From: Nitrospinota bacterium
GTDB lineage: Bacteria; Nitrospinota; Nitrospinia; Nitrospinales; VA-1
Direction of reading: 5' to 3'
DNA length: 48,510 nt
NCBI GenBank assembly: GCA_038108555.1
Contig: JAYNIA010000014.1
Location: 1 to 48,510, forward strand
Below are positions 9,001 to 15,000 of the stretch, one piece after another. Positions within the stretch are counted from its first letter, which is position 1; every line of letters starts with the position of its first letter. The position numbers are program-made.

Positions 9001-12000
9001 CAAGGGAAATCTGGGTTCCGGATAGGTCGATTGAAAAACTATAAGCCCTTTAAAATATTGGGGATATCTTTTATGCCCTCGGGGTAGGGATGAAGCCTGG
9101 ACTCCTGGGTCTTACGGACTTTTATCTCAATATTGCCTTCCTCAAGGTTTTTGGGGCCTACAATAATTTGCAGGGGAATTCCAATTAGGTCGGCGTCTTT
9201 CAGCTTGACCCCAAGTCGGTCTTGACGATCATCTAGAAGGACATCAACACCCATATCTATCAATTGGTTGTAAATGGATTCGCAGGCGTTTTTTAAATCG
9301 TCTTTTTTGAAATTTACCGGAATGATAACGGCCTCAAAAGGAGCCAGGCTCAGGGGCCAGACCATTCCTTTTTCATCATGATTTTGCTCAACCGAGGCAG
9401 CAGCGGTTCTACCTACACCTATTCCATAGCAACCCATGATCATTAAATTTTCTTTTCCATGGCTGTCCAGATAGTGAGCTTTCATTGCTTCACTGTATTT
9501 AGTTCCAAGGATAAAAATATGTCCCACCTCAATGCCACGCTTAACCTGGTATTCACCGTCTTTACATTTGGGGCAGGGGTCTCCTGGAAGGATTCTGCGT
9601 AAATCTCCCGATTGGGTGATTTTTAAATCGCGTTGGAACTGGACGCCAGTGAAATGGGTATCCGCTTTGTTGGCTCCGGTAACAAAATTCTTTAATTGAG
9701 AAACTTCCTGGTCTGCATAAACGGGAATATCCAAATTAACAGGGCCGATGTATCCGCAGGGCAATCCCAGTTTTTCCTGGATGGTTTTTTCAGCCGCAGG
9801 TAACAACCATTCGCAACCAATCAGGTTTTTTAATTTAACTGTGTTTATTTCATGGTCCCCGCGCACCAGTCCGGCGACCAACCCATTTTCATTTTCCAAT
9901 AAGATTGTTTTAACAATCTGTTTGTCAGATAACCCAAGAAAACCTGAGACTTCTTCCACAGATTTTTTTCCCGGGGTCAAAACTTGTTTTAGTTCTTCTT
10001 CACCATCGGAAGGTGTGGTGTTAGATTCCGGGCGGGATTCTGCCAACTCCACGTTGGAAGCGTAGCTGCATTTTTCACAAAACCCAATTTCATCTTCACC
10101 CGAATCTGCCAGAACAGCGAACTCGTGTGAAAAACTACCGCCGATGGTTCCAGAGTCTGCCTGTACCTGTTTGAATTCCAAACCGCAGCGGGTAAAAACG
10201 TTTGAGTAGGCCTGTGCCATTTGTTCATAGGTTTTTTGAGTGTCTGCTTCATCGGCATGGAAACTGTAGGCATCTTTCATCAAAAACTCCCTGCCTCTCA
10301 TGATTCCGAAGCGGGGTCGAACTTCATCGCGAAACTTTGTTTGAATCTGATAAAGAATCGCGGGTAGCTGGCGGTATGATTTAATTTCTTTTCGAATGAT
10401 ATCGGTAATGACTTCTTCATGAGTGGGACCATAGCAAAACTCACGGTCATGGCGGTCTTTTAGTCTGAGCAATTCCTTTCCATAAAAATCCCACCGTTTG
10501 CTTTCTTGCCATAATTCCGCCGGTTGAATGCTTGGGAGGAAGACTTCCTGGCCTCCAATTTTATTCATTTCTTCGCGGATTATTGTTTCGACCTTTTTCA
10601 GAACCCTCAATCCGAGAGGGAGGACAGAATAAATACCTGCTGCAAGTTGCCGGATCATTCCCGCACGGACCATGAGCTTATGGCTCACCACCTCTGCATC
10701 GGCTGGTGATTCTTTCAGCGTGGGGATTAATAATTTAGAATAACGCATTTTACCTGTTTGGAATTTATTTGAAGAAGTGGGATTCTATTCGCTAAAAGAT
10801 TTTTCAGCAAGCGCAATGTGTTCTTCGCTATGAATTTCCAGCCAGCCTTTATGGATTTCCATGAAGTGGACCATGAAACCCCGGTCAATCATTTCCTGGA
10901 TAAGGTCGGTGAAATTGAGTTGTGAAATGTCCTCGGATTCTTGGAATTGGCCCTGGTAGTTTTTTACAATATCATTGTAGGTCTCAATCAGTTGTTCCGC
11001 TCCTGTTTTGCTGAATTTTGCAAGCCCTATAAATTCGTGGCTGGCAGTTTCCGGATTTATTTTATTTCCAATTTTTGCCACCACGTTTTCGCTAGTGAAC
11101 CGTATTTCCCTTCGACTTGGCTTGTGCTGGTTCTTGGCAATAATGAAATCCAGGATATTTCCTTCCTGATGTTCATGGTATTGGGTTGAATTGTCAGCTA
11201 CCAGAATGATGTCTTCTCGTCGCCCCATTAGTTCTTTTATAATAGAGTCCTGCGCCAGAATATCCGAGTAAAGCATGATGAATCCATTATTCATTTTTTC
11301 CTTACCCACAAACAGCGAGTTAAGCATGGACCCGTTTTTGAAATCCTCGTTTTCAAGAATGTTAATCCCTTCAGCCTGCATTTGGTCTCTACCGTACCCG
11401 GCAATGACTGTGATGTCAGCGAGGTTGTTGTTGTTTAACGTTTGGATCTGATGGTCGAGAAGTGTTTTCCCACATATTTCCAGCATGGCCTTGGGTTTTC
11501 CATTTAGTTTTTTCTGTAAGACGGGATCTTCTCCTGCGGCAGGAATAATAACGGGAATATTGCTGGAAAGTTCGTTTTCCTGATCTTTTTCCTTAACATC
11601 CAGAAAGCCCACGGTTTTAAAAATTTCCCTTACGGTGCTACATAGAGGATCTGCTTCAAAGGATCGCTGGTTACGGAGAATTATTTTTGCGGTTTCCATC
11701 ATGGCTTTGTAGGCACTTCTCAGCAAATGATTTGCATGGATTATGATTTGGAATCCGGCGGCGTTAAGTTCTGTTTCGGTAGTTTGATTATAAGTGGTAG
11801 GAACACAAACCAGAGTTTTATTCAAATTCAGCTCTTTTGAAATTTCTTTATAGTGCCGGGCAAACTCGAATATTTGATCGGAGGATTTAGATTTTGAATG
11901 GATCATGATCCCATCCACTCCTGCTTGTAGATATATCCTTGCACGGTTTACAGCGTCTTCCATCGATTTTCCGGCTATGAGACTTTCCAGTCTGGCGATT

Positions 12001-15000
12001 ATCATGAAATCATCTGTCTTTTGGATCTTTTTTCCGCGACGAATTTTTTGTGCAAACACTTCCGGGTCTTCCAGGTTTTGCTGGACCCCTGATTCGAGGC
12101 TGTTCCGTTTGGGAAAAACCTTGTCTTCAATGATGATGGCCGAGACACCCGCTTTTTCTAATTTGGATACGGTATATTCAAAAGCATTTGCATCACCTCC
12201 TGTGTCACCATCTACAATCATGGGTTTATGGGTAACAGCGAGTATTTCATTAATGGTTTGAAGCCTGGAGTCAAAGGTTACAACCTCTATGTCGGGGTGG
12301 CCTTTTGAGGCTGAGTCAGTAAGGCTGCTTTCCCAGATTGCATCAAATTCTCGAGTGACAGGATTGCCATCAGACTCTCCCTGAACCTGAATGTTATTGG
12401 CAATGATTCCGCTCAGCCCGTTATGGGCTTCAAGGACACGTACTAATTTTCCTTCATTTAGAAGGGCTTTTAGTTTTCCTCTGCGTTGTTCAGGAAGTAT
12501 GTTGTTGAGTAGGGTCATTGGCTTTTGTCTAGGTCAATAAATTCTCGAATCCATGCGGCGACATAGATATCTTCGAGGTCAAAGTTTTTTAATGCGTGCA
12601 GTATGACTTCAGATTGTTCCTGAAGCGAGATATTTTTATCCAGAAAGATCACGTCTTCTCCATTGATCTTGCAATACCCGCTTTGAATTTGAAATTCCTG
12701 GTCATTGAGATTGGCGATTTCAATTTTAATCGCCAGTTTTTCTGCGACACTTTTTAAATCGTCTAATTTGCTTTTTACGTCCTGCATTGCGGGCGTGGCC
12801 AAGAAGGAAATGAGTTTAGCTGATGACTCTCATTATGTCGTTGTAAAATGCAAATACCATTAAGCTTATTAACATGAAGAGTCCTACCTGCTGAGCTCTT
12901 TCTCTGTTTCTTTCGCTGACAGGCTTCCCTTTTAGAATTTCAATCAGGAAAAAGAAAATATGCCCACCATCTAAAACCGGGATGGGCAATAAGTTTAAAA
13001 GGCCCAGGTTAATACTCAACAATGCGGTAAGGCGAATGAGTTCGGCAAAGCCCTGTTCTGCCTGTTCCCCGTATATCTGGAAAATCAGAATGGGGCCACC
13101 AATGGAGTCTGCAGGAATTGAGCCCCATATCATTTTTTTAATGCTCACTGCGATCAGGTAAATTAGTTCCCACGTTTTTTCGCAAGCCTTTTTAAAAGCT
13201 CCTAGAATTCCATATTTCTCCTGGACTTTTTCCCCCTCCAGTCCAATGCCAATCATTCCGATTTCAATTTCTTTGCCTTGAAGGTCTTTGGTCTTCTTTT
13301 TGACAGGGGTTAGTTTCAGAACCATTTCACTTCCGTTTCTTAAAACGTGAAACGAAAGTTCTTTTCCGGGTTTATCACTCGCGGCAGGTTTTAATTCTTG
13401 CCATCCAAATATTGGAGTGTCATCAACCTTCAAAAGAATATCCCCCGCTTGAATGCCGGCTGTGTTGGCTGGGCTGCCTTCTTTTACCAAGGTGATGTTT
13501 TGCGCTAGCGGGGTGATTCCTATGAGTCCCACTGATTTTTTGTCCCCGAACAGGTCGGTAATTTGTTTTGAGACGGGAGCAATGGGGATGTCAAGGATAC
13601 TGCCATTTCTATCTATTTTGAAATTCAGAGAACGTCCGGGAGCATCGTAAACAATTTTTTGAAGTTGTTCCCAAAAAAGAATCTTATCTTCTCCAATGGC
13701 CAAAATTCGATCTCCCGTTTGCAAACCGGCAGCGAGTGCGGGGGACTCCTCATTTACCGAACCTACAACAGGTGATATTGCCGGGACTCCCATGAGATAG
13801 ACAAAATAATAGATGCCGATGGCAAAAAGTATATTGAAGAGAGGGCCTGCGAAAGCAATGGCAAGACGGTGTCCCACAGGAGCTGCGGCAAAGGACCCTT
13901 GTTCGCTGGCTTCTTCTTCTCCTATTTCTTCTCCCTTCATTTTTACATAACCCCCCAGGGGGATTGCTGCAATCAGATATTCGGTTCCTCCTCTTGTAAA
14001 GCCCACAATTTTGGGGCCGAATCCCAATGCAAATTTTTCAACCACAACTCCGACTTTCCTGGCGACAAGAAAATGTCCCAGTTCGTGCACAAATATGAGA
14101 GCTGCAAGTCCGGCAAGAAAAGCCAGCATTTTGGTGCTGAAACTCAGGATTGCATCAAAAGGTAAAATTGATAGTTCGTACATTATTTGTCAGGGTTTTT
14201 TTGTGAAATCCAATACCTCCACATTGGGAGGGGTCTGGAAATGAAAGGTTTTATCGGGAATACTTCTGTTTGTTTTTATATGACTGAAAAGCATTTCAGT
14301 CCTATTTCCTAATTTATCATACACGGTTGATCCAGTAATCTGTAAGTTTTTCTTGTTGGCAAATAGTTCCAGCCTTTTTAGAGCCTGGTCTTCCTCCTTG
14401 GGGATGAGCGTTATGCTTATTGGGTCGCGGTCGAGATCAACACTTTCAACGTTAAAGGACTCAAGCAATTTTCCTTTTCCTGCAAGAAAAAGAGCAGGAG
14501 TATTTGAAGAATAAATACTTTCAATGGGCACTTGGGTGACCTGTTCTTCCTCGGATACGTAATGCCAAAGGATTTTGCCATTGCTTATCAAAACCTGGGT
14601 GTCCGGTTCACCATAGATCCATTTCATCTTGCCAGGTTTTTTTATAGTAACTGTTCCTGTTGCAGTCTGAGTGTTGTCCATCATTTTTACGTAGGATTTT
14701 TGTGTGAAATCTGCTTCGAAGGTCAAAATCTTTTCGTAATTTTTCTGCACTGTATCCAGGGCTTGTTGCTCGGGGGTTTCAGCAAAACCCATGGTGGAAA
14801 ATAAAAAAATAAAAATAATGACTATATACTTTATTAAATGAACCAATTTAGTTTCCTTTATTGTGTCTTAAAACTCTTCGGCCTGAAATTTCAATCTTTT
14901 CTTCAATAATTAATCGAATCGCTTCCGGGTATATAATGTGTTCTTGTTCCAGAATTCTTTTGGAAAGAGACTCTGTATCGTCATCATCTCGAACAGGAAC

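Follow-up and report, generated by a model that had tools for sequence, protein, structure and literature searches.

Vertical inheritance of a PEP mutase fusion gene and a probable aminoethylphosphonate pathway dispersed among housekeeping genes in the Nitrospinales

The Pnt/AepXYZ pathway for aminoethylphosphonate (AEP), as described by Rice et al. (2019, PMC6697681), uses a PEP mutase (Ppm), a phosphonopyruvate decarboxylase (Ppd), an AEP transaminase and a cytidylyltransferase (PntC), the same four enzyme families that are found in the Nitrospinales, and its commonest Ppm fusion, 33% of Ppm, joins the mutase to a PF12804 domain. The Pnt/AepXYZ genes are clustered there, whereas in the Nitrospinales they occupy four unlinked housekeeping loci, with Ppd split in two and the fused domain lacking its catalytic arginine. 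Adjacent alpha and beta decarboxylase genes are likewise reported for the RhiE/RhiF heterodimer of Bacillus subtilis (9iz3/9iz4; PMC12141560), which belongs to an antibiotic cluster, while the Nitrospinales pair is flanked by an NAD-epimerase/ppdK/glyS block on one side and an ABC transporter on the other. The Burkholderiales_CDP-OH clusters of Chu et al. (2022, PMC8942020) combine a Ppm-PntC fusion, Ppd, AEP transaminase, a second PntC, a 2OG-Fe oxygenase and phospholipid genes; one Nitrospinales genus, g16, keeps their oxygenase, PntC and CDP-OH trio, and lipids are predicted for both groups, although the genes are clustered in the one and dispersed in the other. In the sea, a PepM with the motif EDK-X5-NS marks phosphonate producers such as Prochlorococcus and SAR11, whose pepM cassettes were described by Acker et al. 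(2022, PMC8931226) as lying on islands, being exchanged horizontally and occurring in 6-10% of cells, in contrast to the near-fixed and taxonomy-congruent pepM of the Nitrospinales.

Genes for phosphonate production have been reported to rise with ocean depth and have been credited to SAR11, Prochlorococcus and Thaumarchaeota (Acker 2022, Lockwood 2022); the main texts of these two papers never name Nitrospina as a producer. Nitrospina PepMs are nonetheless entered in Dataset S1 of Acker 2022, and Nitrospina pepM, aepY and phnW are tabulated in the supplements of both papers, unaccompanied by discussion. The string "phosphon" does not occur in the main text of PMC10839748, PMC3578206 or PMC8026999, PMC5029188 mentions only phosphonate uptake and degradation, and the literature searched, which did not extend to subscription papers, yielded no discussion of phosphonate synthesis in Nitrospina. 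Since the pathway is known and the gene set already stands in published supplementary tables, the novelty here is limited; what is new is the vertical, order-wide pattern with its coordinated losses and replacements.

The window, by which we mean the whole 48,510-nucleotide stretch of Nitrospinota DNA that was analysed, carries pepM in the gene order purN-lolA-rseP-orf95-pepM-proS-rimP-nusA-infB, and every feature of the window located below is on the reverse strand. The pepM fusion gene (10785..12518), an open reading frame of 577 amino acids, codes for a PEP mutase joined to a degenerate domain of the LicC/PntC fold. Downstream, at a distance of 36 bases, is proS (9039..10748; TIGR00409 over cut-off), and upstream a conserved 95-residue reading frame, orf95 (12515..12802), overlaps the pepM start by 4 bases and is preceded by rseP (12816..14183; TIGR00054 over cut-off) and by lolA and purN (14190..15474), the head of the co-oriented block, whose order is kept in all four families. 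The survey's finding of a housekeeping block rseP-orf-pepM-proS with constant neighbours is borne out in the 84 of 89 loci fetched (five partial or split loci were excluded): an orf95 orthologue lies upstream of pepM in 79, the remaining 5 being at contig ends, and pepM is accompanied by rseP in 74 and by proS in 81. The product of orf95 matches no NCBIfam or Pfam family at E 0.001, its Atlas clusters are unnamed with members also in Thermodesulfobacteriota, and the gene was lost along with pepM in one genome (G048) and retained in another (G002). A promoter and terminator scan was uninformative, giving 13 promoter-like sites against 14.3 expected.

Family membership confirms 10785-12518 as a genuine PEP mutase fusion, with enzyme activity predicted from sequence. 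The mutase domain (residues 16-302; 11613..12473) brings the product to 346.6 bits against TIGR02320 (cut-off 319.55), while it stays under the cut-offs for phosphonopyruvate hydrolase (TIGR02321, 162 against 374 bits) and PrpB (TIGR02317, 103 against 354 bits), and the Pfam domains are PF13714 and PF12804. The motif EDKVFPKRNS, claimed earlier for this gene, is present at residues 131-140 (12099..12128), and its general form EDK-X5-NS, as defined in PMC6697681 and PMC8931226, is found in 84 of 84 fetched Nitrospinales orthologues; Asp76 aligns with the site altered in the D58A mutant structure 1s2u. The mutase domain shows a dN/dS of 0.017-0.042 against five congeners, and the GC content of the gene (0.424) is close to that of the genome (0.427). 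A model of the fusion (pLDDT 84.2) gave PEP mutases in all of the top ten Foldseek rows, the best being 5unc and 1pym; only PepM-superfamily chains are among the matches listed, so the fold search does not address the C-terminal domain.

That domain (10788..11555) is a PF12804 member, at 36.5 bits against a cut-off of 27, but is probably non-catalytic, with AAGEDPVL where GXG(T/S)R would be expected and WLEIH where WxEID would be. The signature GXG(T/S)RX4-8PK with its catalytic arginine is missing from 83 of 83 orthologues read (that of G087 was not caught by the pattern), the lysine being lost as well in 3, and the aspartate of WxEID, an acidic motif that presumably binds metal, is a histidine in 80 of 80 read, the pattern not having caught 4 of the 84. 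The best PDB sequence matches are nevertheless LicC (1jyk) and PntC (6pd1), and purifying selection persists, dN/dS being about 0.035 in the two pairs, of five, whose dS was unsaturated. Loss of the arginine in the Treponema enzyme, Tde-PntC, is reported to lower activity below 10% (PMC6697681). Because this residue is absent throughout the orthologues read, the domain is probably not the cytidylyltransferase of the pathway, and of the survey's PEP mutase fused to a cytidylyltransferase the PF12804 fusion stands and the working cytidylyltransferase does not. The domain probably binds nucleotide or product without catalysis, and a PepM-PF12804 fusion should not necessarily be taken for the activating enzyme.

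Of 102 Nitrospinales genomes 89 have a pepM match, as do 48 of the 51 that are near-complete, and the matches span 21 of 22 genera; the TIGR02320 cut-off is exceeded in 84 of the 102, which reproduces the order-wide distribution claimed earlier; across the phylum it is exceeded in 85 of 120 genomes, including one (G102) outside the order. In a PepM tree of 84 genomes all 12 genera with at least 2 members are monophyletic, and in a comparison over 65 genomes none of the 29 PepM splits with strong support conflicts with the ProS or RseP trees, with normalised RF distances of 0.39-0.45 for PepM vs ProS/RseP, 0.44 for ProS vs RseP and 0.99 for shuffled labels. Linkage to pepM disqualifies proS and rseP as independent references for the PepM tree, which leaves the genus labels alone in that role. 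With a tree that follows taxonomy, a fixed site and host-like composition, pepM behaves as a vertical core gene, and the description of the PepM, Ppd and AEP transaminase route as a core, vertically inherited trait, dispersed in the order rather than placed on an island, agrees with these data. A donor was not found among the outside hits, the nearest of which, CTP-transferase/PepM fusions, reach 52-54% across the mutase domain. A near-fixed vertical pathway is a counter-example to the horizontally exchanged, island-borne trait described by Acker, and its retention implies a steady role in the cell envelope and not a variable defence trait.

The split decarboxylase pair (C4:5511-6564), the AEP transaminase (C2:138263) and a PntC-like gene (C2:28961) were all found where the survey had placed them in the genome (G000). 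A beta-subunit orthologue, said earlier to be 63-90% identical in 36 of 41 genomes, is present at 60-89% identity in 90 of 102, G000 counted. The two G000 subunits score 195.9 and 129 bits against TIGR03297, each under the cut-off of 312.5 (their sum of 325 exceeds it, as a rough guide only), and about equally, 185 and 131 bits, against ComE/ComD (TIGR03845/03846; cut-offs 221.5 and 147.95). These near-equal scores would suit a sulfopyruvate decarboxylase (ComDE), with the transaminase acting on another substrate and PepM coupled to another step. The best PDB match for both subunits is the phosphonopyruvate decarboxylase RhiEF (9iz3; E 1.6e-35 and 1.4e-33), in a search that returned no ComDE structure for comparison. 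Moreover, G000 (92% complete) has no ComA match, a cysteate synthase score of 65 against 324.9 and no Xsc over cut-off, so that, with both subunits below the ComDE cut-offs and no source or sink of sulfopyruvate over cut-off, ComDE is not supported as the identity of the pair. Of the 102 genomes, exactly four (G033, G070-G072) encode a Ppd in one chain that scores over the TIGR03297 cut-off, and these are also the four in which something other than the split orthologue is the best match to the beta subunit; G070-G072 also have a canonical AepZ over cut-off, and in G070 and G072 the native decarboxylase and transaminase genes were lost in place. The g2/g10 replacement was probably one event, these being sister genera in the PepM tree. 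The G000 transaminase itself scores 344.8 bits against TIGR03301, under the cut-off of 360.8, which 7 of 9 Nitrospinales orthologues scanned do pass; HMMER gives it 172-205 bits to AEP transaminases, and AEP transaminases also take the first five places among its PDB matches.

The closest relatives found of the decarboxylase and transaminase belong to a split-Ppd/AEP transaminase/PntC/CDP-OH operon in Nitrospira, Scalindua and Binatia, for which the literature searched held no earlier description and whose genes, unlike the dispersed ones of the Nitrospinales, are still together. Outside the Nitrospinota, 69 beta loci extend far enough downstream to show their neighbours: a transaminase of this type is present in 65 and PntC in 64, with a CDP-alcohol transferase beside these enzymes in 56 and an LPG-synthase TM gene in 50. 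The Nitrospinales transaminases form one clade within the operonic group. A PepM-family frame of 546-581 amino acids is present in 5 of 5 operon-bearing genomes tested, 3 of them over cut-off; the aligned Nitrospira-locus fusions read EDNVYPKRCS and represent another PepM subgroup, about 35% identical. Three sister-order genomes, G108-G110 (92, 83 and 58% complete), jointly hold the split decarboxylase, transaminase, PntC and CDP-alcohol transferase with no PepM-family match, so the downstream genes can persist without a detectable PepM. Persistence of the pair in these genomes would also suit ComDE, and the alpha subunit of G110, at 156.1 bits, exceeds the ComD cut-off of 147.95. Yet in the Nitrospinales the pair is mutually exclusive with canonical Ppd and was lost together with pepM, and in relatives it is operonic with PntC, which makes ComDE a very improbable identity and gives good contextual support to a phosphonopyruvate decarboxylase of the RhiEF type. 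The decarboxylase and transaminase, conceded earlier to be weak points, are thus strengthened by the operonic relatives, by the Ppd/AepZ replacement and by co-deletion in G048.

In this last genome, which is 97% complete, intact flanks surround each of the sites from which pepM, the alpha/beta pair, the transaminase and the PntC of contig C41 are missing; G048 is also a reduced genome of 1.7 Mb that has lost many genes regardless, which counts against the weight of the co-loss. G002 has lost pepM and the C41 PntC at their usual sites, and the other pathway genes are without a match throughout its genus (g14). A tally by hand of the 51 near-complete genomes gave PepM in 48, Ppd in 49, the AEP transaminase in 47, a PntC-type gene in 49 and all four in 44.

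Two stand-alone PntC-type genes, both with signature and EID motif intact, are candidates for the activating enzyme. The survey had C2:28961 complete the route, and its product is indeed close to Treponema PntC (156 bits, E 8.6e-45 by HMMER), but as a core PntC it must be rejected, since only 31 of 102 genomes carry it and families f2-f4 lack it altogether. The near-core gene is C41:15926-16678, in 73 of 102 genomes; it matches Treponema PntC weakly (E 1e-4, with GlmU scoring higher) and is placed next to the operonic PntCs in the tree with only 82% support, so that its putative action on AEP is read from genomic context.

Together these genes suggest the following route. The PEP mutase of 10785-12518 would convert PEP to phosphonopyruvate, and the RhiE/RhiF-type heterodimer, judged from its context, would yield phosphonoacetaldehyde, pulling the unfavourable first step. 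The C2:138263 enzyme, most of whose orthologues pass the family cut-off, would transaminate this to AEP, and a stand-alone PntC-type enzyme would cytidylylate it, putatively that of C41:15926-16678 in most lineages, in f3 a different PntC that occupies this site, and in g1 and g9 the added or replacing copy C2:28961. A CDP-alcohol phosphotransferase may then move the AEP group to a lipid, with an acceptor that varies by lineage. The same genes could instead serve phosphonate breakdown, by PhnW-type deamination of imported AEP with PepM in reverse, as might be thought from the PhnDEC-type transporter reported in most Nitrospinota (PMC10839748) and from the entry of the transaminase under phnW in the Lockwood 2022 table; the 12 Nitrospinales rows of that table, however, show no phnA, phnX, phnY, phnZ or palA. 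PhnJ was not found in G000 either, and the PntC partners indicate biosynthesis. The phosphonopyruvate decarboxylase step runs one way, so AEP cannot reach phosphonopyruvate, and breakdown is therefore extremely unlikely. An order-wide methylphosphonate or hydroxyethylphosphonate branch was rejected, an MpnS-like query matching 1 of 120 phylum genomes, its own source, and G000 giving one weak Fe-ADH match.

We thus think it likely that the Nitrospinales make AEP, activate it as CMP-AEP and transfer it to the cell envelope, most likely to lipid, by scattered genes inherited vertically since their ancestor. Taken singly, AEP is very probably the product and its use on the envelope through CMP-AEP is probable, while a lipid acceptor has about an even chance and ceramide in particular is doubtful. 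The ceramide-operon CDP-alcohol transferase, proposed earlier as the acceptor enzyme, did not hold up as a general route, strong matches being missing in five genera (g5, g6, g16, g18 and g20). This absence, and the fact that no one CDP-alcohol transferase tracks pepM order-wide, would also fit AEP placed on a glycan or glycoprotein, or kept or released as a free solute, and phosphonates of Prochlorococcus are reported on glycoproteins (PMC8931226). The C5 CDP-alcohol transferase, which adjoins ino1 and the inositol-phosphate cytidylyltransferase gene (IPCT), points the same way and is unsupported as the AEP acceptor enzyme in G000; its paralogues sit elsewhere in other genomes and remain candidates. 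Against such non-lipid fates, which we hold to be unlikely, stand the CDP-alcohol transferase and LPG-synthase TM genes of the operonic relatives, and g16, in which 3 of 3 loci read have a 2OG oxygenase, then PntC, then a CDP-alcohol transferase, an arrangement resembling the predicted Burkholderiales phosphonolipid core (PMC8942020).

On the preferred reading, the main marine nitrite oxidisers probably carry the full known AEP gene set as an ancestral feature among housekeeping genes, with membrane decoration as the predicted use, and the pathway connects nitrification with the phosphorus redox cycle; cluster-based mining overlooks dispersed pathways of this kind. More speculatively, and with a low probability, the order may possess a membrane lipid of its own that bears AEP, either a phosphono-ceramide or a phosphonylated hopanoid, with the arginine-less PepM domain as a feedback sensor; such a lipid, if real, would serve as a biomarker of marine nitrite oxidisers and would imply an unrecognised, constitutive mid-water source of phosphonate. 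A squalene-cyclase-like barrel protein of 322 amino acids (its single-sequence fold, at pLDDT 39, being unusable) adjoins the near-core PntC in 59 of 102 genomes, and in Binatia, at locus L272, a homologue adjoins the complete AEP operon.

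The pepM observation is genuine. At 10785-12518, minus strand, lies a 577-aa ORF that exceeds the TIGR02320 cut-off (346.6 bits against 319.55) and falls well short of those of the phosphonopyruvate hydrolase and PrpB models; its product carries the EDKVFPKRNS motif and a C-terminal PF12804 domain, and its top matches, by sequence and by fold, are solved PEP mutases. The gene lies within a block sharing its orientation, purN-lolA-rseP-orf95-pepM-proS-rimP-nusA-infB, where orf95 is a conserved 95-aa ORF overlapping the pepM start. Homologues carry the source labels Nitrospina or Nitrospinaceae, composition is host-like (GC 0.424 vs 0.427 for the genome) and dN/dS is 0.02-0.04. 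Divergent from purN, on the plus strand at 15835-20847, are two response-regulator/GGDEF-like genes together with one HDOD-like and one ankyrin-repeat gene, all labelled by motif.

The survey's finding that pepM is a core, vertically inherited gene of the Nitrospinales is borne out by genus monophyly, a fixed site and congruent trees. Of the order's 102 genomes, 89 have a PepM match and 84 pass the TIGR02320 cut-off; a match is present in 48 of the 51 near-complete genomes and in 21 of the 22 genera. The counts claimed earlier (84/102, 48/51, 21/22 genera) were thus obtained again. Of these 89 loci, 84 were fetched, five partial or split ones being left out; EDK-X5-NS is present in all 84, orf95 in 79, rseP in 74 and proS in 81. 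The PepM tree recovers each of the 12 genera represented by more than one genome as monophyletic, none of its 29 strong splits conflicts with ProS or RseP (65 genomes in which both are long enough), and its distances to the ProS and RseP trees equal that between those two; both of these genes are linked to pepM, and the independent check on the tree is the genus labels. Three near-complete genomes have no pepM: in G099 proS is cut by a contig end, the G034 assembly has no proS, and G048 represents a true loss. At G080:C13:14372-16245 the match falls in two frames, reflecting a frameshift or an assembly error. Among 18 genomes beyond the order the cut-off is passed only by G102, which holds two clustered pepM-ppd-Fe-ADH loci (L055, L056) unrelated to the Nitrospinales gene, their copies being ~35% identical. 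PepM fusions beside AEP operons in Nitrospira and a Chlamydiae bin (L244:5023-6702, L253:5013-6692, L217:5589-7259) score below the TIGR02320 cut-off, and an EDK-X5-NS filter would miss them because their motif is EDNVYPKRCS or EDNIFPKKCS.

The chemistry is that of the known Ppm, Ppd, AEPT and PntC route. For its second step, profile scores confirm that the split alpha/beta pair (C4:5511-6564) matches phosphonopyruvate decarboxylase (Ppd) and sulfopyruvate decarboxylase (ComDE) about equally, under both cut-offs, as had been claimed. We favour Ppd because of the RhiEF match, the exclusivity with single-chain Ppd, the operonic partners, and the lack of ComA and of any cysteate synthase or Xsc over cut-off. 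RhiE/RhiF, a characterised heterodimeric phosphonopyruvate decarboxylase (PMC12141560), is the top solved-structure match for both subunits, with no ComDE structure returned for comparison. The pair occurs in 90/102 genomes and single-chain Ppd over cut-off in exactly four others (G033, G070-G072); in G070 and G072 the pair is missing from its native site downstream of ppdK, and the replacement was probably one event. When the best 80 of 524 beta-related loci were taken, 76 had no Nitrospinota label; among the 69 with downstream room, which are mostly Nitrospirota and not independent, a transaminase of the same type follows in 65, PntC in 64 and a CDP-alcohol transferase in 56, and a PepM-family frame of 546-581 aa lies elsewhere in all five tested genomes with such operonic loci (three over cut-off). 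That the pair is instead ComDE strikes us as very improbable: three sister-order genomes (G108-G110) do keep the downstream genes without a PepM match, and the alpha subunit of G110 is over the ComD cut-off, but in a profile search of the genome carrying the window ComA was absent and neither cysteate synthase nor Xsc was over cut-off. Apart from this preference for Ppd, we note that the sister-order loci (L057, L071-L074) comprise a split decarboxylase, transaminase, PntC and CDP-alcohol transferase, with no PepM-family match in their genomes, and that L275, among the 76 loci, resembles mislabelled Nitrospinales.

An orthologue of the transaminase (C2:138263), at least 56% identical, is present in 89/102 genomes. 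The copy at C2:138263 is just below the TIGR03301 cut-off, which 7 of 9 scanned orthologues pass; AEP transaminases take the top five places among its PDB matches, and in a tree the Nitrospinales orthologues group as a single clade within the operonic transaminases. G070-G072 carry a canonical AepZ in its place. Two distant genomes (L078, G093:C42; L079, G007:C99) share another, mobile-looking cassette with transaminase, CDP-alcohol transferase and PntC-like genes.

It is at the cytidylyltransferase step that the survey's finding had to be revised. The domain fused to PEP mutase had been called a cytidylyltransferase, a label made improbable by AAGEDPVL at the position of the PntC signature GXG(T/S)R, by the missing signature Arg in 83/83 fused domains read and by His for the Asp of EID in 80/80; Treponema PntC without that Arg has <10% activity (PMC6697681). 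Purifying selection still acts on the fused domain, which makes a binding or regulatory function likely. The fused domains of G102 (L055, L056) likewise have no signature Arg. The PntC at C2:28961, said to complete the route, keeps the signature intact and closely resembles Treponema PntC, but only 31/102 genomes carry it (g1, g9 and one g5), so it does not do so across the order. A second intact PntC-type enzyme is encoded at C41:15926-16678, beside thiC-thiE-thiG, in 73/102 genomes; six genomes (G049, G090, G091, G096, G100, G101) have lost it in place and kept the C2 gene. The C41 site holds a 2OG oxygenase and a PntC of operonic type in family f3, and also a CDP-alcohol transferase in all three g16 loci read. 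The predicted substrate of the C41 enzyme, judged from context and not from similarity, is AEP. Adjoining this near-core PntC in 59/102 genomes is a 322-aa squalene-hopene-cyclase-like barrel protein (L098:4791-5759; G000:C41:14790-15758), a homologue of which lies beside a full AEP operon in Binatia (L272:11024-12016).

With these parts corrected, the pathway reading is well supported. All four steps occur together in 44/51 near-complete genomes, the seven short of a step being G099, G034, G057, G033, G048, G016 and G044. Missing steps in the first four are assembly gaps at flanks, and G048 is a loss: there rseP directly meets proS, the epimerase directly meets the ABC transporter, and the transaminase and C41 enzyme are absent from their own sites, the latter at thiG, though the small size of this genome (1.7 Mb) weakens the argument for coordinated loss. 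G002 (3.0 Mb, 79% complete) has pepM and the C41 enzyme missing in place, and neither decarboxylase nor transaminase has a match in its genus, g14. Dataset S1 of Acker 2022 (PMC8931226) includes Nitrospinae PepMs, N. gracilis 3/211 among them, at high confidence, and of the 12 Nitrospinales genomes among the rows listed in supplementary file 11 of Lockwood 2022, 9 are marked for pepM, aepY and phnW alike. The main texts of both leave Nitrospinales phosphonate genes undiscussed, and 'phosphon' is absent from those of three Nitrospina genome papers (PMC10839748, PMC3578206, PMC8026999). What makes the case interesting is that an abundant group keeps the pathway in a fixed, vertical pattern, and that this can be tested cheaply.

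The acceptor of AEP may differ by lineage. On contig C77 (L096:387-5754) a desaturase, a serine palmitoyltransferase-like gene, two further genes and a CDP-alcohol transferase form a probable bacterial sphingolipid operon, whose genes presumably include ceramide synthase and reductase; an HpnN-like transporter follows operons of this type in three other genomes. Strong matches to the C77 transferase occur in 34/51 near-complete genomes and are missing in g5, g6, g16, g18 and g20. Judged by its genes (ino1, inositol-phosphate cytidylyltransferase and two CDP-alcohol transferases), the C5 locus (L095:5225-9625) is an inositol lipid or di-myo-inositol-phosphate locus. An MpnS-like gene is found in 1/120 phylum genomes, so methylphosphonate cannot be counted as a trait of the order. 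An accessory cassette (L116:5228-9555, G006:C16) combines a PntC-like gene, a 231-aa MpnS/HEPD-like gene, an unassigned ORF, a phosphonate-type Fe-ADH and a CDP-alcohol transferase; its MpnS/HEPD-like protein is half-size, has MpnS 6b9s as top PDB match (E 1e-39) and aligns with residues that we take to be MpnS-specific, and the cassette is a possible methylphosphonate branch in this one genome.
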